From: a phage
Assembly (NCBI GenBank): GCA_022979955.1
Contig: GCA_022979955.1_3642.1
Length of the DNA: 64,000 nucleotides
Reading direction: 5' to 3' (one strand)
Notes under the pieces: generated by a model
What the model was told of the DNA's origin: nothing
The model's input: the letters and a program-made list of their open reading frames with translations, nothing else
Databases searched by the model: none
Made by a program: the position numbers and the translations under genes
In this document: in pieces, positions 2,288 through 44,627 of the stretch
How the letters are laid out: the number at the start of each line of letters is the position of its first letter
Numbering within the stretch: position 1 is the stretch's first letter

Positions 2288-2854
2288 TTATTCAAACTGC
2301 AATAGCAAGTCCACCACCGCACTAGGCCTGTCAACAAATTCCCCAGGTCCACATGCCCATAGAGGGTATCCATCAACATACCGCCATATCCAACCTGCAG
2401 TGTGAAGCTCAAGCAGGGCAGTGCCGTCCTTACTGTCAACCACCCTTTCCCACAGTGTTGGGCAGCGAAGCTTGAGAATCGGGTCCCCGCCCTTATACCC
2501 GTCCATGTAGATACCCATTGCAAAGTTCAGCATCATCTTTTTGTGCACTGATCTCTTACTGAGGGTGCTCATCACTTCCTCTTTGTGAATGTTTGTAAGC
2601 TTCTCTTTGGCTACCCGCAGATCATTGCAACCATTGTTCAGCAGATCTTCCAGACACTTGATCCGAAGGTCGTGAATGTCTTTGTCGTGTACAGTTGGCA
2701 CGGGGTCGTAGCGGTATAGCACCGTTGATACAAGGTTGCTCGGGTGTGGGTCTGACAGCAACCCATAACCCCAATACTCTTCTGTATCTGAAAGGACAAG
2801 ACACCCAATGTCTCTGTCAAGCTTTCCTGTGTTGTAAGCCACATTGACCGCCAT
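2288..2854 (-). CDS. hypothetical protein
   Basis: 188-aa ORF in co-directional block. Confidence 0.45.
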   Translation of the reverse strand: MAVNVAYNTGKLDRDIGCLVLSDTEEYWGYGLLSDPHPSNLVSTVLYRYDPVPTVHDKDIHDLRIKCLEDLLNNGCNDLRVAKEKLTNIHKEEVMSTLSKRSVHKKMMLNFAMGIYMDGYKGGDPILKLRCPTLWERVVDSKDGTALLELHTAGWIWRYVDGYPLWACGPGEFVDRPSAVVDLLLQFE

Positions 2855-2856
2855 GA

Positions 2857-3102
2857 CTATAGCTCCACTAGCAAAGTGCTTTCAAAGTGCCGTTCATGCA
2901 AACCGTTGTAAGGGACCACTTCTACAACGCCATCACGGACATATGGGGCCATCATGGTGGTATAATCTCCAAACGGGTTGGTATTGTCACTAACCACAAC
3001 CACCTTCTGCCCTTCCTTGGCAGAGTGCCAAATAGATCTGCACTTCATCAGGTGTTCGAGAGCTCCAGGTAAAATTTTGTTACGTTCTTTACGGGTCTTC
3101 AT
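2857..3102 (-). CDS. hypothetical protein
   Basis: 81-aa ORF, 2-nt gap to downstream gene. Confidence 0.4.
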   Translation of the reverse strand: MKTRKERNKILPGALEHLMKCRSIWHSAKEGQKVVVVSDNTNPFGDYTTMMAPYVRDGVVEVVPYNGLHERHFESTLLVEL

Positions 3103-4063: not shown

Positions 4064-4326
4064 TACTCTTCCTCCATAGTTTCACCAAATACTTCGATAC
4101 GAGCATCGAGCTCGGTTGCTTTCAGCTCCCCAACAAAATATTTTAGTTCTTTCTTGTCCAGATCGTAAGCCCACACACAAGAAGAACATGCAGTCACAAT
4201 CAGCAGCGTAGATACACGACCTGACTCTGTGATCATGCTCACAATGGTTCCCACAGGGAACGTGTTGATAGCTTTTTTAACTGGGCGTTCAGCTTTAATT
4301 ACTACCTCTGTTGCCATAAATAACAT
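4063..4326 (-). CDS. hypothetical protein
   Basis: 87-aa ORF, overlaps neighbour by 1 nt. Confidence 0.4.
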   Translation of the reverse strand: MLFMATEVVIKAERPVKKAINTFPVGTIVSMITESGRVSTLLIVTACSSCVWAYDLDKKELKYFVGELKATELDARIEVFGETMEEE

Positions 4327-4332
4327 CCTCTC

Positions 4333-5826
4333 TTACTTAGCGTACTCGATTAATTCCACAGTTTTCCCAAAGCTAGGGATATAATTTTTATTATACCCTT
4401 CGGTGAGAACCCATAAAGTATCGTACTTTTTCCACTTGTTGTCAACAGCCTTTTGTTCAAAGTTATGCTCAAAGTATAGGTCGGTCAGGACGATGACATC
4501 TTTTGCATTCGGTATGTTGGCATCCAGATACTCGAACACGCAAGCAGCTGTTGTGCCCCATGTTGAGTGTACCTCATAGTTGATCATCTCGTCTATGTTG
4601 CCGCGAGTGTATACTTTAACCTCTCCGACTTCAGTTGACCAACAGAACATTGTAACCTTAAACTCTTTATACAGATTGCACAATCCGGTGATTTCATTGA
4701 ACATTTTCTTTAAAGTTCTTTGAGAGATCGAGCCAGAAACGTCTAAAGCTACCACAATATCTATGGTGTTTTCCGGATTACGACCAGGAACAATAACGTG
4801 CTGGTTCTTGTTTATAGCCCCAACTTTTCGCATTGTGCTGGTCAAAGACCCAGATCGGCGACCAGGTTTTCTGTAGGTCAGTTCAGCCTTTCGTTTAGAC
4901 AACATGCGTTGCTTGATGATGTCTATATAATTAATTACAGGCTTACCTCTATTCTTGACAAACTCACGAACCGCCTCAGGGCAACGGCCTCCGGAAGCTT
5001 GCATTGCTGCCTCCAGCATGTCACCAGAGTCCTGCATGGCCTGATCTTTATCAGATTGACTGATTACAGGTTGTGGCTGATCATACCCCATAGCCTTTCC
5101 AAGATCATCACTAGTGCCACCGTTACCACTCATGTGATCGTCGGTTTGTCGTTTATCTCCTTGAGAGTTCTCGCCTTTACCGTTCTTACTTTTACCGCTA
5201 TTCTGATCTCTTTGCTTATCAAGAACCGCATAGACGTTCTCAGCAATCCATCCATGGAACCTCATGTCACAGTAGCAACTAGCTAAGAAGCCAAAAGGCT
5301 TACCTTTTACAAACGTAGTGCTTTTCCCCTTCGGGAAGAAAACACAAGGGGGCTTGCTAAAGTCAACCACAAGACCTGTGTTGATAACATGATCACAGGC
5401 AATATTGAACAGCTCCGGCTCAAAACTTTTGCCACGGACCAGATGATCACAGATAATATGCCCCACCTCATGCGATAGAAGAAATGCCACCTCTTTCACA
5501 GATTTTGGGGAATAGAAAACCTCAGCCATCTCAAACTGCTTGTCAGTCAAAGATGCTTTAAGAATGGTTTTGCGCTCATCCGCCAATCCCATAATGAACT
5601 CAGGGCTGTAATAAATGCGTTTATGGTCTGTTGCCATGGTGGAGCACCATGTGTGGTTTTCTACGAACTGCAACCCTGACAACAGTGTGCCATAAAACGG
5701 CAGTTTTTCAAGAAGATACATACGTGCTGCCTGCAGCATTCGCAAGGCGTCATCTTTTTGTGCGGCAATGATTTCTGAACTTCTGCTATCCATTAAAACT
5801 CCAGAAGGGGACTTGGCCCCTGTCAT
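4333..5826 (-). CDS. vWA-domain protein with zincin-like HExxH motif
   Basis: HEVGH (HExxH) in N-terminal half; MIDAS-like DxSGS (ALDVSGS) in C-terminal half; a MoxR-type AAA+ ATPase is encoded at 9456. Confidence 0.7.
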   Translation of the reverse strand: MTGAKSPSGVLMDSRSSEIIAAQKDDALRMLQAARMYLLEKLPFYGTLLSGLQFVENHTWCSTMATDHKRIYYSPEFIMGLADERKTILKASLTDKQFEMAEVFYSPKSVKEVAFLLSHEVGHIICDHLVRGKSFEPELFNIACDHVINTGLVVDFSKPPCVFFPKGKSTTFVKGKPFGFLASCYCDMRFHGWIAENVYAVLDKQRDQNSGKSKNGKGENSQGDKRQTDDHMSGNGGTSDDLGKAMGYDQPQPVISQSDKDQAMQDSGDMLEAAMQASGGRCPEAVREFVKNRGKPVINYIDIIKQRMLSKRKAELTYRKPGRRSGSLTSTMRKVGAINKNQHVIVPGRNPENTIDIVVALDVSGSISQRTLKKMFNEITGLCNLYKEFKVTMFCWSTEVGEVKVYTRGNIDEMINYEVHSTWGTTAACVFEYLDANIPNAKDVIVLTDLYFEHNFEQKAVDNKWKKYDTLWVLTEGYNKNYIPSFGKTVELIEYAK

Positions 5827-9456: not shown

Positions 9457-10640
9457 TGTCAAGAAACGTATTTGAAAGTGGTCAAATCACTGTCCGTGAG
9501 TTGCCAGCTATCATTCAGTTTGCCCAGCGTCATAACCGATCTGTCCTGATTTTAGGACCAATGGGTGTGGGAAAGAGTCAGGTGATGAAGCAGATCGCTG
9601 ATAATATGTTCGGTGAGCGAGATGACAACCTGGTTGACGTGCGGCTGTCAGATAAAGATCCTGCCGACTTATCTGGGCTACCTATCCCTGTAGAAGCGGA
9701 TGGGACTACACGTACAGTGTTTGCAATCCCAGAATTTTGGCCTGCGGATCCTGACTGGAGCGGAATTGTCTTTCTGGATGAGCTCACTCATGCAGATAAC
9801 TACCTGCAAAAGGTTGCAATGCAGATTATGCTCGACCACAAGTGCGGCACCTATGCATTCCCTAAGGGCTCTGTTTTTGTAGCTGCAGGTAACCGTTCTA
9901 CAGATGGTGCTGTTCTTTCGGCGCTCGAAGCCCCTCTGGCTAACCGCTTTATCATTGTAGAAGTTACAAGCAACGCAGAGGTGTTTATTGAGGACTACGC
10001 ATTCCTTAATGGGGTGCACTCCTCTGTAATTGGATATCTGAAAAGAGTTCCATCAGCTATTGATAATTATGAGGCCATGGCTGAGATTAATTGTCCATCT
10101 TTTGCCACACCGCGATCTTGGGTTGCTGCATCTGATATCTTGCACGATTTTGACAGCGGTATTATTTCTGACGCTATGGCCCGTGTTCTTCTGCAAGGTG
10201 CTATTGGTCACACTGCAGCGGTAGAGATCTGGACTTACCACACCAAGAAACGCAACTTACCGGAAATCGGTCGGATTATGGCAGGAGGTTGCAAAGAATA
10301 CGTAGGCCCTAAACAGCCAGACATCTTGTGGATTCTTGGATCTGAAGGTTGTATCGCTATTCGTAATATGATGGAAAATGCAAGTATCTCCGACGAAGAT
10401 CTTGTTAGCTGTGTGGCAAACTTCCTCGATTTCCTTTGGGAAAACTTCAAGGACGAGAACCGAGATTTTGTATTCTCAGTCTTTATGGCGATGATGAAAC
10501 CTAATGCCTTAGGAAATGCCTTGCTTATCGGTAAAGGTCGTGACAAGATTGTTGCTCAGCTGATCAAAGCATACCCAAACCTGATGAAGATTGTAAAAGA
10601 GTTTGGTGAAGAGTTTAGCGCCATTTTGGCTAAAGCTTAA
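9456..10640 (+). CDS. AAA+ ATPase, MoxR/CbbQ-like
   Basis: Walker A GPMGVGKS and Walker B IVFLDELTHAD; size and motif spacing fit MoxR-type ATPases that partner with vWA proteins. Confidence 0.75.
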   Translation: MSRNVFESGQITVRELPAIIQFAQRHNRSVLILGPMGVGKSQVMKQIADNMFGERDDNLVDVRLSDKDPADLSGLPIPVEADGTTRTVFAIPEFWPADPDWSGIVFLDELTHADNYLQKVAMQIMLDHKCGTYAFPKGSVFVAAGNRSTDGAVLSALEAPLANRFIIVEVTSNAEVFIEDYAFLNGVHSSVIGYLKRVPSAIDNYEAMAEINCPSFATPRSWVAASDILHDFDSGIISDAMARVLLQGAIGHTAAVEIWTYHTKKRNLPEIGRIMAGGCKEYVGPKQPDILWILGSEGCIAIRNMMENASISDEDLVSCVANFLDFLWENFKDENRDFVFSVFMAMMKPNALGNALLIGKGRDKIVAQLIKAYPNLMKIVKEFGEEFSAILAKA

Positions 10641-27203: not shown

Positions 27204-27241
27204 TTGACAACAGTGATAGGGCCTAATATAATGGCCCTATC
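27204..27241 (+). promoter_or_regulatory. consensus sigma70 promoter with overlapping operator-like palindrome
   Basis: TTGACA-17-TATAAT; 9-bp inverted repeat GATAGGGCC/GGCCCTATC (27215-27223, 27233-27241) brackets the -10 hexamer. Confidence 0.6.
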
Positions 27242-27263
27242 AAAACGAAAGGGGACCACAGCA

Positions 27264-33740: not shown

Positions 33741-34190
33741 AATGGATTTCCTCCTTTTGATATTTCACCGGGCCGGATATTTTAAAATTCTTAGAAAATC
33801 AGAAAATGGATCGAAAACTAAAATGGATTTTTCAGAGTAGGCGCGACAAGCTGAATAACTCATCCTATCGTTTGCACCATATTCCAGGCCACCATTATAG
33901 ATTTCCCACACATGCTAACCTCTCTCTACTAGAACTTCCTCCACTTACCCTTGACCTTCTATGGTAACAATCTAACCGCTATCTTGAAGTTGCGGTGCAG
34001 CTTTCCAGGTACTCGATCTACTTTTCATTTCAGGGCTTGGATTTTCTGAAAATTTTTCTCGATAAATTTCTCAGTACTCGATCTGTTTTTCGTTTTCTGA
34101 ATCGGATTTTCTGGAAATCGTTCCGGCTCTCAACCTGAAATTTTGGGGACGAAATCGATTTTTCGTTTTCAGAAATGGATTTTTAAAATT
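33741..34190. repeat. iteron-like short direct repeat cluster
   Basis: Recurring AAAATGGAT(T), GGATTTTCTG, GTACTCGATCT and TTTTCGTTTTC units in an ORF-free, AT-rich stretch. Confidence 0.5.
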
Positions 34191-35640: not shown

Positions 35641-35668
35641 TTGACACGCTGCAAAATTTAAGTAAACT
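35641..35668 (+). promoter_or_regulatory. sigma70-like promoter
   Basis: TTGACA-16-TAAACT followed by leader hairpin GGGAA-TGT-TTCCC. Confidence 0.5.
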
Positions 35669-35716: not shown

Positions 35717-36121
35717 ATGAATAAGAACATACGCCGCATCATGAACGAACTGGCAAACGATGAAAAAATTATTGACATGCATTTAGTCAACATTTGCCGC
35801 CGTTGTGTAACATATAACAACCGCGCCGCAAAAGCGCGTGAGATGAACGCAAAAGGCACCTTAAAGCCATTCCAGGTGGTGGTAAAGGCCATTAAAGATG
35901 TAACTAATACGGCAAACCAGGTACAGGGGAACACCAACGAGAGTACCAATATTGATCCGGCTTACATCATGAAACGGATCCGGACCTGCAAGAACAAAGA
36001 GCAAGTGTATAATGTCATAGACTGGTTGGATTCTATGGGCGATGTGGTTTACAATAGGTTTTCTGCAGCTATCGAGATCCAGCTTGACAGGTTGGACGGT
36101 AAAGTACTGAAAACTTACTAA
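35717..36121 (+). CDS. hypothetical protein
   Basis: 134-aa ORF with AAGGAAAAAG SD. Confidence 0.45.
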   Translation: MNKNIRRIMNELANDEKIIDMHLVNICRRCVTYNNRAAKAREMNAKGTLKPFQVVVKAIKDVTNTANQVQGNTNESTNIDPAYIMKRIRTCKNKEQVYNVIDWLDSMGDVVYNRFSAAIEIQLDRLDGKVLKTY

Positions 36122-36139
36122 GTTTATTTTTAGATGGCC

Positions 36140-36169
36140 TTGACTCCAGGGTCATCAATAAAGTAAACT
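36140..36169 (+). promoter_or_regulatory. promoter within repeated 50-nt cassette (copy A)
   Basis: TTGACT-18-TAAACT inside TTTATTTTTAGATGGCC-TTGACT-CCAGGGTCATC cassette. Confidence 0.5.
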
Positions 36170-36202
36170 AATCTCAACTAAGCGAAAAAGGGGGGCTTTA
36201 AG

Positions 36203-36322
36203 ATGAGCACTACACGCCAATACACAAAGGTAACTATTATCGTTTGCGTTGTCGGTTACATCCTGGCGCAAATGTTAATGAGTAGCGCTAACAGTTTTGC
36301 AAAATTTTTCTTAAATTTTTAA
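36203..36322 (+). CDS. small hydrophobic peptide (39 aa)
   Basis: ATG after AAAGGGGGG; predicted single TM helix; below ORF-track cut-off. Confidence 0.35.
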   Translation: MSTTRQYTKVTIIVCVVGYILAQMLMSSANSFAKFFLNF

Positions 36323-36350
36323 TTGACAAACTAACTTAGATCGATATACT
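36323..36350 (+). promoter_or_regulatory. sigma70-like promoter
   Basis: TTGACA-16-TATACT followed by leader hairpin GGGAAAACTTCCC. Confidence 0.55.
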
Positions 36351-36401
36351 TAAACACGTAAACGGGAAAACTTCCCAGAGCACACAAAAGGAGAAAACAC
36401 C

Positions 36402-36743
36402 ATGACTACTATGACCGCCGCAGAAAAAGCTATGCAGATCGCCGCGCTGAAAAAACAGATCGCAGACCTTGAGAATAAGATCGATAACTTTGAAATCGAC
36501 GAGGACAAGTACGACGAAAACTATGATGAATGGTTAGACGAGATCTACGGCGAAATCATGATCGGAAACATTTCTTTTCTTCCGTCGCGTATCCTCAAGG
36601 AGCTAGATCCTATCGCTTACCGCTGCGGATTTAGCGACTACATCGACAGCCTGGATATTGAGGACGATGAAGAATACCAGGAATTACAGACAGAGCTCGA
36701 AGAAGTGAAAGAAGAGCTTGCAGAACTGGAAGAAAACGAGTAA
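36402..36743 (+). CDS. highly acidic coiled-coil-like protein
   Basis: 113-aa ORF rich in D/E with AAGGAGA SD. Confidence 0.45.
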   Translation: MTTMTAAEKAMQIAALKKQIADLENKIDNFEIDEDKYDENYDEWLDEIYGEIMIGNISFLPSRILKELDPIAYRCGFSDYIDSLDIEDDEEYQELQTELEEVKEELAELEENE

Positions 36744-36761
36744 ATTTATTTTTAGATGGCC

Positions 36762-36791
36762 TTGACTTCAGGGCCATCAATAAAGTAAACT
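36762..36791 (+). promoter_or_regulatory. promoter within repeated 50-nt cassette (copy B)
   Basis: TTGACT-18-TAAACT; -35 hexamer sits between inverted repeat GATGGCC/GGCCATC. Confidence 0.5.
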
Positions 36792-36832
36792 TTAGACTGT
36801 TAACACTTAACCAATACAGAGGAGTTAAAACC

Positions 36833-37078
36833 ATGGCCGCACTAATTACCAAATATTATGCCCCTACCAACACCAAAAGCGCCCGTATCATGGTAAAAGG
36901 CTTCGGACGTAAAAAGGTTTACACCTGGGATTATGCCTTAGACACGGAAGACAACTACACCAACGCGATGACCGATTTTATTAATGATCTGAACACGCGG
37001 ATCTTAACAAATTATAAAATTACCGACATTGCTTATATAGGTGAAGGCGGGATCTGTTTTGTAGGCATTGTGAAATAG
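36833..37078 (+). CDS. hypothetical protein
   Basis: 81-aa ORF with GAGGAG SD. Confidence 0.45.
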   Translation: MAALITKYYAPTNTKSARIMVKGFGRKKVYTWDYALDTEDNYTNAMTDFINDLNTRILTNYKITDIAYIGEGGICFVGIVK

Positions 37079-37152
37079 TTATTTTTTCGGTGGTCCTGGC
37101 TGCAGGGCCATCTATAAAGATAATTTATTAACACAATGAAAGGAGAAAGTAC

Positions 37153-37506
37153 ATGATCAGCGGGGCAAGTTTTATTATTGGCGCTATTGCTACGGCTTTA
37201 ATTGTAAACAAGATCCAATCTAAAAACGAAAAAGAGAGCAACGCGCTCACAGAATACCCATTTTGGGTATTCAACGACAATGAAGACTACATTATCAAGT
37301 ACAAGAATGAGAAGGGCGACCAGGTAACACCGCGACCGATCCCAGCTTACAAGATGCAAGAAACACTATACCGCCTAAAGGCTGGAGGCGCAAAAATCGT
37401 AGACTTTTGGGGATATGATTGCAAGGATCAGGAGGTTATAAAACGGCGTATCCGGGCGATTCAGGCAAATATTGAAGTTAGCAAGGGGGGAATATATGAA
37501 GATTAA
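37153..37506 (+). CDS. hypothetical protein with N-terminal TM helix
   Basis: 117-aa ORF with AAAGGAGA SD. Confidence 0.45.
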   Translation: MISGASFIIGAIATALIVNKIQSKNEKESNALTEYPFWVFNDNEDYIIKYKNEKGDQVTPRPIPAYKMQETLYRLKAGGAKIVDFWGYDCKDQEVIKRRIRAIQANIEVSKGGIYED

Positions 37507-37693
37507 TTTTGAGAAGATTGTAAAGCGATCTCATGATTCCGAAGAGTTGCCGGAACGCCGCCAGCGCAACAATAAATTGAATAAGCCAAAAAGATTTGGG
37601 AAGATCTGGCGGAATCATTATGATCGTAAATTGCCGGGCCTACTTTTGGAACGTGAACGACAGGCGGAACGATACCGCCACAAAGGCAAATAA
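37496..37693 (+). CDS. small basic protein
   Basis: ATG after AAGGGGGG; overlaps upstream stop; Lys/Arg-rich. Confidence 0.4.
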   Translation: MKINFEKIVKRSHDSEELPERRQRNNKLNKPKRFGKIWRNHYDRKLPGLLLERERQAERYRHKGK

Positions 37694-37701
37694 CAACCAA
37701 C

Positions 37702-37730
37702 GCCCCGCCATTGTGCGGGGCTTTTTATTT
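37702..37730 (+). terminator. rho-independent terminator
   Basis: GCCCCGC-CATTGT-GCGGGGC hairpin followed by TTTTTATTT. Confidence 0.65.
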
Positions 37731-37851
37731 CTATCATACGAATAGCGCCCCTGGTTGGCCCTGTAAGCGCCAAAAAGGCCCCCACCTATGCAATCGCCCC
37801 CTTTAACCTGAAAACATCGCCCAGGGCCGTTTTATGGCGTTAAAAATATCA

Positions 37852-37879
37852 TTGACATCGTCAACAGGTTAGCTATACT
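37852..37879 (+). promoter_or_regulatory. sigma70-like promoter
   Basis: TTGACA-16-TATACT. Confidence 0.55.
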
Positions 37880-37911
37880 AACCACATCAAAGAGAGGAAG
37901 GAGTAAACGCC

Positions 37912-38172
37912 ATGCGTAAATTAAAAAATTTTGATAAAGTTGATGTTATCCTGAATAATTTTTACTACTGCAACAACAAGGCTATTTGGTGGCGTGATAG
38001 TTCCACCGATAAAGTCAAGGCGCGCTTTCTCCAAGGGCACTGGCAAGGCCGCCCAGTGATTAAAATCATGGGGCAATTGGTAGCGTTTAAAAATTGCCGC
38101 CGTGTTGATGACGTTGAGGAGATTTTAAACATTTTGCGCCACAATAATTTAAAAAATAGTGTTGACAAGTAA
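37912..38172 (+). CDS. hypothetical protein
   Basis: 86-aa ORF with GGAAGGAG SD. Confidence 0.45.
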   Translation: MRKLKNFDKVDVILNNFYYCNNKAIWWRDSSTDKVKARFLQGHWQGRPVIKIMGQLVAFKNCRRVDDVEEILNILRHNNLKNSVDK

Positions 38173-38189
38173 ATCTCAATAAGTATACT
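38162..38189 (+). promoter_or_regulatory. sigma70-like promoter
   Basis: TTGACA-16-TATACT followed by leader hairpin GGCGGGAA-AACT-TCCCGCC. Confidence 0.55.
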
Positions 38190-38246
38190 TAAACACACAG
38201 GCGGGAAAACTTCCCGCCACTAACAAAGAAAATAGGAGAAAATATC

Positions 38247-38870
38247 ATGACCACCGTTAACATTACCGCAGGTTACAATTTATCTTTCGACGTGCTGACC
38301 GACGAACAAAAAGAAAAAGCTATTGAAATGGTCCGCGAAAGAGAAGAACACAGTGGGGATAACTTTTTTGCAGAAAGTGTAATTGAATACTATAAAGAAT
38401 ATGTTTTTCCAGAGTACGGGCTTGAAGATACAAAAGTACATTGGTCAGGCTTTTGGTGCCAGGGTGACGGCGCGTCAATCAGTGCGGAAAACGTGGATTT
38501 AGAAAAATTCTTGCGTAAAGTCAAGTCTCTGACTAAATTCCGCTCAATTCGTCGCTTGTTCGGCACAATGCACGATGGCGAACTATCCGCAAGTGTTGAG
38601 CGTGATCCATATAGCCGCTATAGTCACGAAAACACTGTAAGCGGGTACATCGATACTACATGGCTAGACCTGACCGCCAAACAAGAAAATAAAGTGGAAG
38701 ATCTGGAAGAGCTGATCACCGAGACGGTACGGGAGCTATCCCGCAAGGTTTACGTAGACCTGGAGGAGGCCTATCTAGAACAGTTCACTACCGAAAACCT
38801 GATCGGCCTTATTGAGGCCAATGATTGGCGGTTTGATGTAGATGAATATGGAGAGATGAGTTTTTCATAA
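38247..38870 (+). CDS. hypothetical protein
   Basis: 207-aa acidic ORF with TAGGAGA SD. Confidence 0.5.
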   Translation: MTTVNITAGYNLSFDVLTDEQKEKAIEMVREREEHSGDNFFAESVIEYYKEYVFPEYGLEDTKVHWSGFWCQGDGASISAENVDLEKFLRKVKSLTKFRSIRRLFGTMHDGELSASVERDPYSRYSHENTVSGYIDTTWLDLTAKQENKVEDLEELITETVRELSRKVYVDLEEAYLEQFTTENLIGLIEANDWRFDVDEYGEMSFS

Positions 38871-38959
38871 ATAAAGTGTTGCAATAATCTAAAAACCTGC
38901 TATATTAAAACTCAAGGGGCAAGACGTTTGCCCCCACACAAAACAAAGAGGAAAACATC

Positions 38960-39340
38960 ATGAAAAACACTACTAAAGCTATTGACACCGTCATGTTTAA
39001 CCTAGTTACCTTTCGCGAGGATATGAAAGATCTTCCACGTGAAACAGTGTGCGATCACATTGAAAACTATCGCAAACTAATCAAAGAGTTGCCTTTAAAA
39101 CGTGATCAGTATGCGGCTAACGCCATGCTTAATGCCATGATCAAAAAGATGATCCAGTGTGATTTAACTCTGGCCTATGACTATGCGGGTGGTCGTTTTG
39201 CAGTATACAATCAGCCCGTGCCCGGTATGGGCACCACCGAAGAATTGCACGCGTTAAATCTGAAGCAAGATGTATGGGATAACATGCCCCGCGTGGTGGT
39301 GTGGGCAGAAAGCGGAAAGATTTACGGCGATAATTTTTAA
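38960..39340 (+). CDS. hypothetical protein
   Basis: 126-aa ORF with AAGAGGA SD; leader hairpin GGGGCAA-GACG-TTTGCCCC upstream. Confidence 0.45.
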   Translation: MKNTTKAIDTVMFNLVTFREDMKDLPRETVCDHIENYRKLIKELPLKRDQYAANAMLNAMIKKMIQCDLTLAYDYAGGRFAVYNQPVPGMGTTEELHALNLKQDVWDNMPRVVVWAESGKIYGDNF

Positions 39341-39350
39341 TCAGGTAACA

Positions 39351-39376
39351 GGCGGCATATTTGCCGCCTTATTGTT
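39351..39376 (+). terminator. rho-independent terminator
   Basis: GGCGGCA-TATT-TGCCGCC hairpin followed by TTATTGTT. Confidence 0.55.
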
Positions 39377-39404
39377 AAACAGAACTGCAAAAGAGGTACA
39401 TAGA

Positions 39405-39776
39405 ATGGAATTTATTATTTTGGCTGTAGTAGTTGCCTTGTTCAACGCCTGGATCGCTGGCAAGATAGGTAGATCCGCTTTTCTATGGTTTGTTATATCT
39501 ATTTTCCTGGGAGTGGTTGCAACTATTGTATTGGTTATCCTTGCAATTGTTGACAAGGGCGATAATAGAAAGGGTAAAGTGTTTTCCGACCTGTATGACG
39601 CACAAACGTTTGTCAACGCCTATTATAGTGATCTTCCAGTCTCCCTACGCTGCAGCCTGGCACAACAGGTTTTTGATGAGGCTAAAACCAGAGACCAAGC
39701 CCATGAGATATGTTTAACTGAGGCGGATCGCCTATTTGAGAGGAATAGAAAATATGTGGACCAGCCGTTTAAATAA
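39405..39776 (+). CDS. membrane protein (two predicted TM helices)
   Basis: ATG after AAAGAGG; longer ORF start at 39270 would overlap upstream gene and terminator. Confidence 0.45.
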   Translation: MEFIILAVVVALFNAWIAGKIGRSAFLWFVISIFLGVVATIVLVILAIVDKGDNRKGKVFSDLYDAQTFVNAYYSDLPVSLRCSLAQQVFDEAKTRDQAHEICLTEADRLFERNRKYVDQPFK

Positions 39777-39999
39777 CGCCACGTTAATTAATCCCTTTAG
39801 TGAAGATTTGAAGCCAGCCGCCTGGCGTGACGGATTCAATAACGAACGCTTTATTTTCAGGCCTGATCTTGAGGAATTTTATAACAATGGATCGAACAAC
39901 AGCGGAGATAATTTTTCTTGTGATGTGCGTGGTGATGGTACTCCTGGGGGCCATTGTAAACCACGTCACTACTACCAGGAGGAAAGGGGGAGACGATGA
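39754..39999 (+). CDS. hypothetical protein (uncertain frame choice)
   Basis: ATG after GAGAGGAA; an alternative overlapping frame encodes a 41-aa TM peptide. Confidence 0.3.
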   Translation: MWTSRLNNATLINPFSEDLKPAAWRDGFNNERFIFRPDLEEFYNNGSNNSGDNFSCDVRGDGTPGGHCKPRHYYQEERGRR

Positions 40000-40040
40000 C
40001 AACCAAGGATAAGCCCCGCACCGATAAGGTGCGCCAGGTT

Positions 40041-40115
40041 ATGGTATGGCTTGAGATCATCGCCCTTGAAATATTGTTAGGGGTAGGAATGTACTTTATT
40101 GCTATAAGTAACTGA
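40041..40115 (+). CDS. small hydrophobic peptide (24 aa)
   Basis: ATG 9 nt after AAGGTG; followed by terminator. Confidence 0.3.
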   Translation: MVWLEIIALEILLGVGMYFIAISN

Positions 40116-40120
40116 TAACG

Positions 40121-40148
40121 CCCCCGATCATGGGGGCTTAACTTTTTC
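40121..40148 (+). terminator. rho-independent terminator
   Basis: CCCCC-GATCAT-GGGGG hairpin followed by CTTAACTTTTTC. Confidence 0.55.
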
Positions 40149-40254
40149 AAAAAATTTTTCTTCCAGGGTGTTGCAATCTGGTCCGCAATATGGATAATAA
40201 CAATCAACGGGGAAACATCCCCACCAACACAAAAACCAGAAAGGAGAAACAAAA

Positions 40255-40455
40255 ATGAGCAACAATATCCGCGTTATTAACTTCAAAAAAGAAGAAAAAA
40301 TTGCCGTGCTGATTGACGGTCAAGAAATATTCAAGGGGTATTATGAAGATCATCAAACGGCGATTAGTATCACTCGCGTGATTGGTTACCATAATTTTTA
40401 CCCTCAAGGCGCTGAGGCAGCAGTAAAACGAATTAAAGAGATTGTAGGCCTGTAA
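40255..40455 (+). CDS. hypothetical protein
   Basis: 66-aa ORF with AAAGGAGA SD; leader hairpin GGGGAAACATCCCC; promoter-like TTGCAA-17-ATAATA upstream. Confidence 0.45.
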   Translation: MSNNIRVINFKKEEKIAVLIDGQEIFKGYYEDHQTAISITRVIGYHNFYPQGAEAAVKRIKEIVGL

Positions 40456-40474
40456 AATTTATTTTTAGATGGCC

Positions 40475-40504
40475 TTGACTCCAGGGCCATCAATAAAGTA
40501 AATT
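40475..40504 (+). promoter_or_regulatory. promoter within repeated 50-nt cassette (copy C)
   Basis: TTGACT-18-TAAATT; identical GATGGCC-TTGACT-CCAGGGCCATC core to copy B. Confidence 0.5.
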
Positions 40505-40546
40505 TAAACCCTGTTAAAATAATCAGTGCAAAAAGGAGTAATGATC

Positions 40547-40846
40547 ATGTTTATCCAGGCTAATAATCTTTATTTCTTTGATGGTCAGATCGTAGACGGC
40601 GTGGAGGTGGAAATCACCGGGTGCCCTGGCGGTCAGGTTATGACTTTTCGGAATAATGCCTTTGATGATTCTCATATCGTTATGAGAATGGAAGTTAGTA
40701 AGCTGGATGACAAGAAAACACTTATCGACTATTCCGTCAAAGATCATCCAGACTACCACATGATCTATGGTGATTTGTGCATTGTTGACCGTGACAAGGT
40801 GAACGGCATTGTTATAGCCATTGTGAACGATGTTTTCTCTGAATAA
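40547..40846 (+). CDS. hypothetical protein
   Basis: ATG 8 nt after AAGGAG. Confidence 0.45.
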   Translation: MFIQANNLYFFDGQIVDGVEVEITGCPGGQVMTFRNNAFDDSHIVMRMEVSKLDDKKTLIDYSVKDHPDYHMIYGDLCIVDRDKVNGIVIAIVNDVFSE

Positions 40847-41069
40847 TTCCGGCAAATGATGCAAAATAAGGCCCCTAGCAGGGCCTGCAGCGATATAATC
40901 ACATAAAGGCTATGCGGTTGCATGTCCTTTATTATTTTAGCGTTACAGCGGCCCCAAGGCGCTTAAAAAAATTTTTAAAGAAGTACTTGCATCAAGCCCT
41001 ACAATATGGATAATAGGACGTGTCAGGGGGAGGCCCCAATCATTAACCGGATAGATAGGAGTTAAAACC

Positions 41070-41416: not shown

Positions 41417-41650
41417 ATGATGGAACAAATTAAACGCGCTGAGGCTATTAATGGCAATGTGATCTATTTTGTCAGCAAAAACGAAAAAGGCGTACCCTAT
41501 GCGGCGGTAATAGTACAGCCTGACGGCGATTATTGGTGCACTGTGTACGGCGCTTATTCTTTTGGGCGTCCAGTGCATGATAAAATTTTGAAAGTAGCGA
41601 ACCCTACCGGGAAAAATATTACAGCAGAAAAATTTTTTGAAAATAGTTGA
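41417..41650 (+). CDS. hypothetical protein
   Basis: ATG after AAAGAGG; longer ORF start lacks SD. Confidence 0.4.
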   Translation: MMEQIKRAEAINGNVIYFVSKNEKGVPYAAVIVQPDGDYWCTVYGAYSFGRPVHDKILKVANPTGKNITAEKFFENS

Positions 41651-41674: not shown

Positions 41675-41725
41675 ATAAATCAAAGGGGGCAACAAGCCCC
41701 ACCAACCACAAAGAGGATAAAAATC

Positions 41726-41905
41726 ATGGCTATTATTGCAAAGACTGAGATCGTAGGCTTAGATTCTATTCTCCTCGCATATGAGGAAGCTATAGAAATG
41801 TATGTAGTTTCCTATGGTGAGTATATCCGTGAATATAAATCTATTGATCTGGCTTTTGAATGTTATATTCGCCAGGTAAATAAAGCATATGATGATTATC
41901 GTTAA
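41726..41905 (+). CDS. small hypothetical protein (59 aa)
   Basis: ATG after AAGAGGA; below ORF-track cut-off. Confidence 0.4.
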   Translation: MAIIAKTEIVGLDSILLAYEEAIEMYVVSYGEYIREYKSIDLAFECYIRQVNKAYDDYR

Positions 41906-41911
41906 AATAGT

Positions 41912-42319: not shown

Positions 42320-42424
42320 ATGAAACAGAAATTAATCGATGCAGTGATCTTGGTTATTGCCCTTGGTATTGGCCTGATTGCAACCATGTCTAATATGATC
42401 TTGTCTTCCAACGGTATCGGGTGA
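42320..42424 (+). CDS. small hydrophobic peptide (34 aa)
   Basis: ATG after AGAAGAGA; single predicted TM helix. Confidence 0.35.
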   Translation: MKQKLIDAVILVIALGIGLIATMSNMILSSNGIG

Positions 42425-42433
42425 GGTTGGCAA

Positions 42434-42649
42434 ATGATCACTAACAAAACAGGCAAAACAGAATTTTTACGCGGCTTGCAAATAGGTAAGCCTGAGATCT
42501 GGCATTGCACTAAAACACCACGCGACGAAATGAAAGACTTTACCGCCACGCTGAAGCGGGTAAAGATATCCATTACGCAGAAAAAAGCCTTGATAGTGGT
42601 GGAAGGTGAGATCCCTCAAGCCGTTGTTATAGTTGAGCGTACAGCATAG
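42434..42649 (+). CDS. hypothetical protein
   Basis: 71-aa ORF with GGTGAGG SD. Confidence 0.4.
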   Translation: MITNKTGKTEFLRGLQIGKPEIWHCTKTPRDEMKDFTATLKRVKISITQKKALIVVEGEIPQAVVIVERTA

Positions 42650-44484: not shown

Positions 44485-44540
44485 TACAACAAGTTACATG
44501 GTCAGGGGCAATAAAGCCCCTTGATCACATAAAAATTATG

Positions 44541-44569
44541 CTATCCCTGGTTGACAGGGATCGGCAGTT
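44541..44569 (+). promoter_or_regulatory. sigma70-like promoter with palindrome around -35
   Basis: TTGACA-17-TATATT; TCCCTG/CAGGGA inverted repeat flanks the -35. Confidence 0.5.
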
Positions 44570-44627
44570 TTGCTATATTCTTTTTGAAGGGAAGTTGTAA
44601 GAAAATTAACTAAGAGGTAAAAACACC

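Follow-up and report, generated by a model that had tools for sequence, protein, structure and literature searches.

Among the 64,000 nucleotides (nt) of phage contig GCA_022979955.1_3642.1 (GenBank assembly GCA_022979955.1; this whole stretch is called the window below) we found four copies of a cassette of about 50 nt, placed between small genes of unknown function. The cassette is probably a composite intergenic element of the type known as promoter early stem-loops (PeSLs), in which an mRNA hairpin, an embedded promoter and a recombination substrate are combined. Comparison of genomes showed that the sense-strand hairpin is constrained, that copies recombine and that a gene module between them is mobile. 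A 6-kb stretch around the cassettes was 94-95.5% identical to Vequintavirus genomes (rV5 and relatives), and by this similarity the window is an rV5-like phage, Vequintavirus (Vequintavirinae). No earlier description of the cassette, or of PeSLs, in rV5-like phages was found in the literature.

A repeat search of the window returned a single family of four copies of 51 nt, at 36120-36170, 36742-36792, 37076-37126 and 40455-40505. Identity to the reference copy at 36742-36792 was 92% at 36120-36170, 73% at 37076-37126 and 96% at 40455-40505, i.e. there are three near-identical copies and one diverged copy, with full cassettes of ~52 nt, all on the coding strand and within 4.4 kb. A 24-nt core (GATGGCCTTGACTYCAGGGCCATC) occurred three times at no more than 3 mismatches, with 0.00 occurrences expected (100 shuffles). 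An initial annotation of this DNA had described such a repeated cassette with a diverged variant, and both were recovered here, as was the variant it had read in the right arm of copy A (GGGTCATC). It had also placed the start of each copy at the stop codon of the upstream gene. The upstream open reading frames (ORFs) end at 36121, 36743, 37078 and 40455, and the cassette begins at that stop codon in four out of four copies. In every slot the stop codon (TAA or TAG) stands at alignment columns 10-13, abutting or overlapping the first pair of the outer stem, and in all four slots a Shine-Dalgarno (SD) sequence of the GGAG type and an ATG follow 34-42 nt past the -10-like hexamer. The copies are as follows, with folding free energy (dG, in kcal/mol), its z-score and the bit score from a covariance model search of the window with filters off:

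Positions 36119 to 36170, plus strand: cassette A, beginning with the stop codon TAA (36119-36121) of an ORF of 134 amino acids (aa); dG -22.3, z -5.8, 84 bits; outer stem 36121-36130 with 36160-36169, inner stem 36133-36142 with 36147-36156, loop 36143-36146, one G·U pair (within GGGTCATC).
Positions 36741 to 36794, plus strand: cassette B, stop codon TAA at 36741-36743; dG -20.9, z -5.2, 81 bits; outer stem 36743-36752 with 36782-36791 (extendable to 36741 and 36794), inner stem 36755-36764 with 36769-36778, loop 36765-36768.
Positions 37076 to 37126, plus strand: cassette C, the diverged copy (73%), stop codon TAG at 37076-37078; dG -22.4, z -4.3, 72.5 bits; outer stem 37077-37086 with 37116-37125, inner stem 37089-37098 with 37103-37112 including two G·U pairs, loop GCUG; no -35 (CTGGCT); an ORF of 117 aa starts downstream at 37153.
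Positions 40453 to 40505, plus strand: cassette D, stop codon TAA at 40453-40455; dG -23.6, z -6.2, 80.6 bits; outer stem 40455-40465 with 40495-40505, inner stem 40468-40477 with 40482-40491, loop 40478-40481.

The sense-strand RNA of all four copies folded in the same way (-20.9 to -23.6 kcal/mol, z-scores of -4.3 to -6.2). The outer stem, A/U-rich and 10 bp long, starts from the stop codon; it is followed by an internal loop of 2x3 nt, a G/C-rich inner stem of 10 bp and a loop of 4 nt. Folding of the antisense strand was far poorer (-8 to -16 kcal/mol). The TTG of the -35 hexamer tops the 5' side of the inner stem with AC(N) in the loop, and the -10 hexamer TAAAYT is the 3' strand of the outer stem. 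What had initially been seen as a 7-bp inverted repeat is actually the core of the inner stem, and pairing extends through the outer stem from the stop codon to the -10 hexamer.

For a conservation analysis 79 copies were taken from the window, from 16 relatives in GenBank and from a number of metagenomic contigs, and the 47 distinct ones (21 genomes) were aligned. In this alignment 98.0% of cells were standard pairs (34-54% in slid-partner controls; 0 of 500 shuffles), and RNAalifold gave, unprompted, the identical 20 pairs. Two-sided changes were seen in four outer-stem pairs, namely 14-63 (GC/AU), 15-62 (UA/CG), 17-60 (UA/AU/GU/GC) and 18-59 (AU/UA). Six inner-stem pairs varied on one side only and always via G·U, with six of the seven one-sided changes keeping the pairing (P about 0.0001-0.006 under neutral expectations). 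The conservation was strand-asymmetric, with 98.0% of cells paired on the plus strand versus 85.3% on the minus strand, and with ten stem positions showing G·T somewhere versus two showing A·C. Nucleotide diversity within slots was 0-0.03 in the inner-stem halves, 0.13-0.25 in the loop and 0.05-0.22 in flanking coding sequence and leaders. In the diverged copy C every pair is kept, yet CTGGCT, CTGGTA or CTGGTT stands where the other copies have TTGACN, and in slot A of the metagenomic contig L007 the hexamers are 20 nt apart and the hairpin is retained. Because of the compensatory and G·U changes, the strand asymmetry, the invariant stems with a variable loop, and the state of copy C and of contig L007, the selected feature is a single-stranded structure of the sense strand, most simply the mRNA, rather than a symmetric DNA site. 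A scan with Rfam in E-value mode over 34-42 kb gave three sub-threshold chance matches and none at the cassettes, which argues against known antitoxin or antitermination RNAs. In phage Gotham (L004, 3887-3936) slot A has lost the 3' arm of its inner stem through an 8-nt deletion (TTGACTCCA--ATCAATAAAG). Hairpin and hexamer spacing are both destroyed by it, so that one copy is naturally knocked out in a phage that is viable.

Palindromic operators such as repressor or LexA-type sites consist of inverted repeats that lie over the -35 box, and the cassette had initially been interpreted in this sense: a dimeric regulator would bind GATGGCC/GGCCATC around the -35 and co-regulate the three downstream genes. 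The palindrome does bracket the -35 in three copies, its inner arms are highly conserved, and other promoters in the window overlap palindromes too. We nevertheless consider an operator quite improbable. The departures from symmetry are nearly all sense-strand G·T (ten positions versus two), pairing runs on through the A/U flanks with compensatory changes, copy C retains the structure without a -35 and with three changes in the left arm, and slot A of contig L007 keeps the hairpin at a spacing of 20. The other palindromes are unrelated in sequence, so there is no shared operator, and no regulator candidate was seen among the genes next to the cassettes. Unlike in an operator, the symmetry of the cassette is kept at the level of RNA pairing and persists without the promoter, and no cognate protein is known; nothing in the evidence seems to require protein binding to cassette DNA.

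Cassettes A, B and D contain TTGAC(T/A/G)-N18-TAAA(C/T)T, with 9-10 of 12 consensus matches and an AT-rich tract upstream:

Positions 36140 to 36169, plus strand: promoter-like site of cassette A (TTGACT-N18-TAAACT, 9 of 12 matches), predicted to serve the 39-aa ORF starting at 36203.
Positions 36762 to 36791, plus strand: promoter-like site of cassette B (TTGACT-N18-TAAACT); the 81-aa ORF starts at 36833.
Positions 40475 to 40504, plus strand: promoter-like site of cassette D (TTGACT-N18-TAAATT); the 101-aa ORF starts at 40541.

The initial proposal that each cassette supplies the promoter for the next gene could be kept for these three copies, as a prediction from their sigma70-like -35 and -10 hexamers; copy C has no -35. 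PhagePromoter called two cassette sites in phage Gotham, the orthologues of B and D. The -10 half (AAGTAAACT) recurs in the window at 35641 after a consensus -35 (TTGACA-N16-TAAACT), and it is also found in the unrelated Justusliebigvirus PD114 (TTGCAA-N16-TAAACT), where the hairpin is absent. Judged from these hexamers, a promoter of the form TTGACN-N18-TAAAYT is plausible.

A stable GC-rich hairpin directly after a stop codon could also be a rho-independent terminator or attenuator that ends each upstream transcript. This would be the literal promoter-terminator reading of PeSLs, and the PeSL stem-loops of RB49/phi1 did cut read-through in a lacZ assay (PMC2839356). For the cassette we regard it as very unlikely, as the sequence after the hairpin is A-rich and not U-rich (CAAUAAAGUAAA) on either strand, the terminator scan of the window does not list the hairpin, and the pipelines used for rV5 or Alma leave it unannotated, yet call terminators nearby.

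Intercistronic stabiliser hairpins and 3' barriers of the repetitive extragenic palindromic (REP) type are stable sense-strand hairpins without a U-tract just after stop codons, which can stop 3'-5' exonucleases, and the cassette too is a stable sense-strand hairpin without a U-tract just past a stop codon. REPs are repeats of host genomes with their own consensus and binding proteins and carry no promoters, and we know of no REPs acting as gene-module boundaries in phages.

The hairpin might further be a processing signal for host RNase III, like the R sites of T7 early mRNA, an explanation that would refine the PeSL-type element and is compatible with it. T7 R sites are often adjacent to promoters. 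If a single strand were cut on the 3' side of the internal loop, the upstream mRNA would end in a protective 3' hairpin, and the fates of adjacent cistrons would be uncoupled. According to the rules for Escherichia coli RNase III, substrates have about 22 bp, and an internal loop limits cleavage to one strand and leaves a 3' hairpin (PMC1540722). The cassette, with about two helical turns (10+10 bp, 2x3 internal loop, possible U-A stack across the loop), fits these rules; its internal loop lies 10 bp below the apical loop, as in substrates cut on one strand, the size of the internal loop is conserved in all slots, and A52 and U54 are nearly invariant though unpaired. Signals of the T7 R1.1 type (Pertzev and Nicholson 2006, PMC1540722) resemble the cassette in being ~two-turn hairpins between short early cistrons, with upper stem, internal loop and lower stem, and in the expected product, an upstream mRNA with the hairpin at its end. 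They differ in that there is no sequence similarity, cleavage of the cassette is putative, and the T7 sites have no host-type promoter inside the hairpin. The top pairs of the cassette (U·G, U-A, G-C) resemble a distal box and are not the canonical UA/UG one, the proximal-box rules need a known cut site to be applied, there is no Rfam match, and a plain exonuclease-barrier hairpin accounts equally for the conservation. On balance RNase III processing is a possible refinement that we propose only tentatively.

The third property of the putative PeSL-type element, recombination, was apparent from comparisons of gene content around cassettes A and B:

Positions 36171 to 36740, plus strand: candidate excisable module between cassettes A and B, with the 39-aa ORF (36203-36322) and a 113-aa ORF (36402-36743).
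Positions 36323 to 36350, plus strand: predicted strong promoter inside this module (TTGACA-N16-TATACT), with a leader hairpin.

A single cassette, flanked on the left as A is and on the right as B is, takes the place of cassette A, the 39-aa ORF, the strong promoter, the 113-aa ORF and cassette B in L003, ECP32, ime and phiWec189, and the 620-bp module between A and B is missing there. From the alignment this is a precise deletion through the repeats or, reciprocally, an insertion. Loop variants (ACAC, ACTT) were common to slots A and B of one genome in 8 of 13 genomes versus 3.1 expected (p 0.0006; the genomes are not independent, but sharing between two slots is seen for several different variants), and this sharing indicates gene conversion. 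Justusliebigvirus KKE7M (Stephanstirmvirinae) has window positions 36322-36789 at 96% identity, comprising the strong promoter, the leader hairpin, the 113-aa ORF and the cassette. Compared with its relative PD114, the module stands in place of an unrelated 71-aa gene, with the left junction inside a TTGACA promoter (shared TTGACAAGATAACTAAAATC) and the right junction inside AATAAAGTAAAYT, the -10 half of the cassette. At the level of genome alignments, these cases show that the copies recombine and that the module is mobile.

The cassette might also be a selfish or neutral repeat, the copies of which would be alike only through gene conversion or recent duplication, with promoter and hairpin features being incidental. 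The clustering of just four copies in 4.4 kb, the evidence for conversion between them and the tolerance of an 8-nt deletion in the 3' arm of Gotham copy A would fit this explanation. It is quite unlikely in our view, as conversion would homogenise the loops as well, but loops vary and stems do not, and as the old paralogue C has diverged at 27% of positions with every pair kept by compensatory or wobble changes. Furthermore, the Vequintavirus genomes examined retain all four slots (copies in about 121 records; slot-by-slot check of 21 genomes). A transposon or miniature inverted-repeat transposable element was considered and rejected, since all copies have the same orientation and lie precisely between genes, and there are neither target duplications nor a transposase in the vicinity.

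In a phage database the cassette was present in the about 121 Vequintavirus records, typically at three places each that were detectable by blastn, and outside Vequintavirus in one phage of another subfamily. Looking for additional copies had been suggested in the initial annotation; no further copy was present in the 64-kb window, whether searched with a sequence profile or with a covariance model with filters off, and in the relative PDX, whose 138-kb genome is complete, the cassette occupies precisely these four slots and no further ones. Pattern scans of IMG/VR and metagenomes gave, among the matches listed, only chance partial matches beyond rV5-like contigs. Distant homologues of the 113-aa gene in IMG/VR (40-61% identity) have no cassette after them, and the cassette is therefore not tied to that gene family. 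The cassettes are set in a long early-type unit of small same-strand ORFs; the genes flanking them all belong to PHROG families of unknown function, and no Pfam domain scored over the curated threshold in any of them.

Several points weigh against a PeSL-type element. The promoter match is mediocre (9-10 of 12, with a long 18-nt spacer) while neighbouring promoters match at 11 of 12, the stringent promoter scan by the rV5 authors left the cassette sites unannotated, and a literature search found no Vequintavirus transcriptome. No U-rich tract follows the hairpin, and the sequence thus gives no sign of the terminator half that a PeSL would have. The sequences compared are close relatives (about 94% identity), which inflates the shuffle statistics; the covariation comes in large part from a single old paralogue split (C versus A, B and D) and a few within-slot events, and gene conversion could contribute to stem identity. 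The documented recombination events are of two kinds only. Two further candidate events did not hold: a supposed gene replacement downstream of slot A in contig L007 proved on alignment to be merely a diverged orthologue of the 39-aa ORF, and an indel of ~350 bp (window-type versus isim-type), taken for an event at cassette D, has its breakpoint at ~40855, about 350 nt downstream, with the same gene after D in both types.

With these reservations, we consider the PeSL type the best supported description of the cassette. PeSLs are promoter early stem-loops of the T4-type phages RB49/phi1, PST/T4 and nt-1/KVP40 (Arbiol et al. 2010, PMC2839356; Comeau et al. 2014, PMC4122927). They consist, in this order, of a stop codon in an AT-rich tract, a sigma70 promoter, a stem-loop with G·T pairs that possibly overlaps the -35 or -10, and an SD sequence with ATG, and ORFans are exchanged between their copies (PMC2839356; PMC4122927). 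Promoter and attenuator activity seen in experiments, and the formation of mini-circles, also belong to their description. The cassette likewise is a repeated intergenic element in an ORFan-rich early region that starts from the upstream stop codon in an AT-rich tract, has a stable stem-loop including G·T pairs that in copies A, B and D overlaps putative sigma70-like -35 and -10 hexamers, and ends in an SD sequence and the start of the next ORFan. Its copies also border ORFans that some close relatives have and others lack, and the junctions lie inside the cassette. In contrast to PeSLs, the cassette has only four copies of one sequence family per genome, its 20-bp two-tier hairpin encloses both hexamers where PeSL stem-loops overlap one or sit beside them, and its putative promoter is sub-consensus (N18) and no U-tract is present. 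Its host is rV5-like (Vequintavirinae), whereas the described distribution of PeSLs is in T4-type myoviruses; this limits taxonomic membership, not mechanism. In its features the cassette matches a PeSL-like element, in what would be a phage group new for PeSLs.

As a PeSL-like element the cassette might work as follows. On transcription of the upstream ORFan it would fold as a two-tier mRNA hairpin. This would most likely provide the upstream cistron with a 3'-end barrier, a processing site or an insulator, and not with a classical terminator, because no U-tract follows the hairpin. As DNA, the same 50 nt would be a moderate sigma70 promoter that restarts transcription for the next ORFan, a function presumably lost in C. 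The near-identical direct repeats are substrates for homologous recombination and gene conversion, and by these processes small genes between cassettes are deleted, inserted and exported, as the genome comparisons show. A more far-reaching version, which we regard as doubtful, would have the same 50 nt read twice, once as a sigma70 promoter in DNA and once as an RNase III-type hairpin in which the apical loop is the -35 and the 3' basal strand the -10, so that each ORFan would be an insulated unit movable between subfamilies.

Promoters associated with hairpins were not restricted to the cassettes. Of 36 strong promoter-like sites in the window, about 11 are accompanied by a hairpin, which precedes the hexamers, covers them or lies downstream of them; the sequences are unrelated to each other. 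Among them are the two palindromes that the initial annotation had noticed at promoters near 27215 (27214-27242) and near 44535 (44543-44561), both of which were found again:

Positions 27204 to 27242, plus strand: element of the same architectural class with unrelated sequence; 12 of 12 promoter match TTGACA-N17-TATAAT, with the -10 TATAAT in the loop of a 10-bp hairpin.
Positions 44543 to 44579, plus strand: element of the same class with unrelated sequence; 7-bp hairpin ATCCCTG/CAGGGAT overlapping the -35 TTGACA of TTGACA-N17-TATATT (with TG extension).

A second repeat family, at 36323-36376 and 38162-38215 (74% identity), consists of a strong promoter (TTGACA-N16-TATACT) followed by a leader hairpin of the CGGGAAAACTTCCCG type. 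Its first copy is the left end of the module common to KKE7M, and similar units of promoter and 5' hairpin recur in Justusliebigvirus loci (GGCGGGAAATGGTTTCCCGCC). A cluster of imperfect direct repeats without a convincing ORF lies at 34002-34183, with 57-nt units 65 nt apart and a 30-nt motif (ATCTNTTTTTCGTTTTC.GAA..GGATTTT) at 34016, 34081 and 34154; Tandem Repeats Finder gave only a weak 12-nt array. The cluster may correspond to a non-coding region drawn in the rV5 paper, and a putative origin or iteron function is possible.

Additional gene-sized segments were common to the window and KKE7M (L005), at 41714-41907 (93%), 42369-42647 (87.5%) and 38991-39326 (76%), matching L005 positions 4278-4471, 10121-10400 and 2759-3094 in the same order. 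The segment at 41714-41907 sits between promoter-like sites at 41647 and 41912. This suggests that the two subfamilies exchange early ORFans in general, with promoters as the boundaries. Downstream of cassette D, at ~40855-40860 of the window, isim, slur12, ECP32, ime and others have an extra gene of ~350 bp (116 aa), which the window and rV5 are without, and a terminator-like hairpin lies on the minus strand at 40869-40886. In the window (40541-40846) and in isim, the gene that directly follows cassette D is intact, with an ORF of 101 aa. In the rV5 record (L001, DQ832317, 8582-8889) it is frameshifted (34-aa product) and annotated as two small ORFs, 178 and 177; the reference would contain a sequencing error here, or else a pseudogene. 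The 81-aa ORF between cassettes B and C (36833-37075) has homologues of 30-47% identity in Seuratvirus CAjan and slur01, Pseudomonas KIL-type phages and Klebsiella podoviruses; as these phages are unrelated, it is a widely travelled ORFan. About 17-22 unannotated MG0656xx records labelled as Campylobacter jejuni phages ('Campylobacter phage' D1, A142, C5 and others) were 94-95% identical to E. coli rV5-like or phi92-like genomes, and their host labels look doubtful.

A palindrome around a -35 box is naturally read as an operator but is not necessarily one, and strand-asymmetric wobble and compensatory changes, as found here, point to mRNA structure instead. The cassette sites are unannotated or inconsistently annotated in the genomes of Vequintavirus, whose members are candidates for phage therapy and biocontrol, and they mark places where gene content likely varies among these phages. 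The idea behind PeSLs, that small cassettes of promoter and stem-loop organise early transcription and serve as joints for ORFan shuffling, would be extended past T4-type phages to rV5-like and phi92-like phages, and the present case supplies sequence-level breakpoints and a cross-subfamily transfer. If the same sequence is indeed read both as promoter and as hairpin, each ORFan would be a self-contained unit with a promoter, a 3' end and a decay rate of its own, and this unit could be cut and pasted from Vequintavirinae to Stephanstirmvirinae by recombination within these signals.

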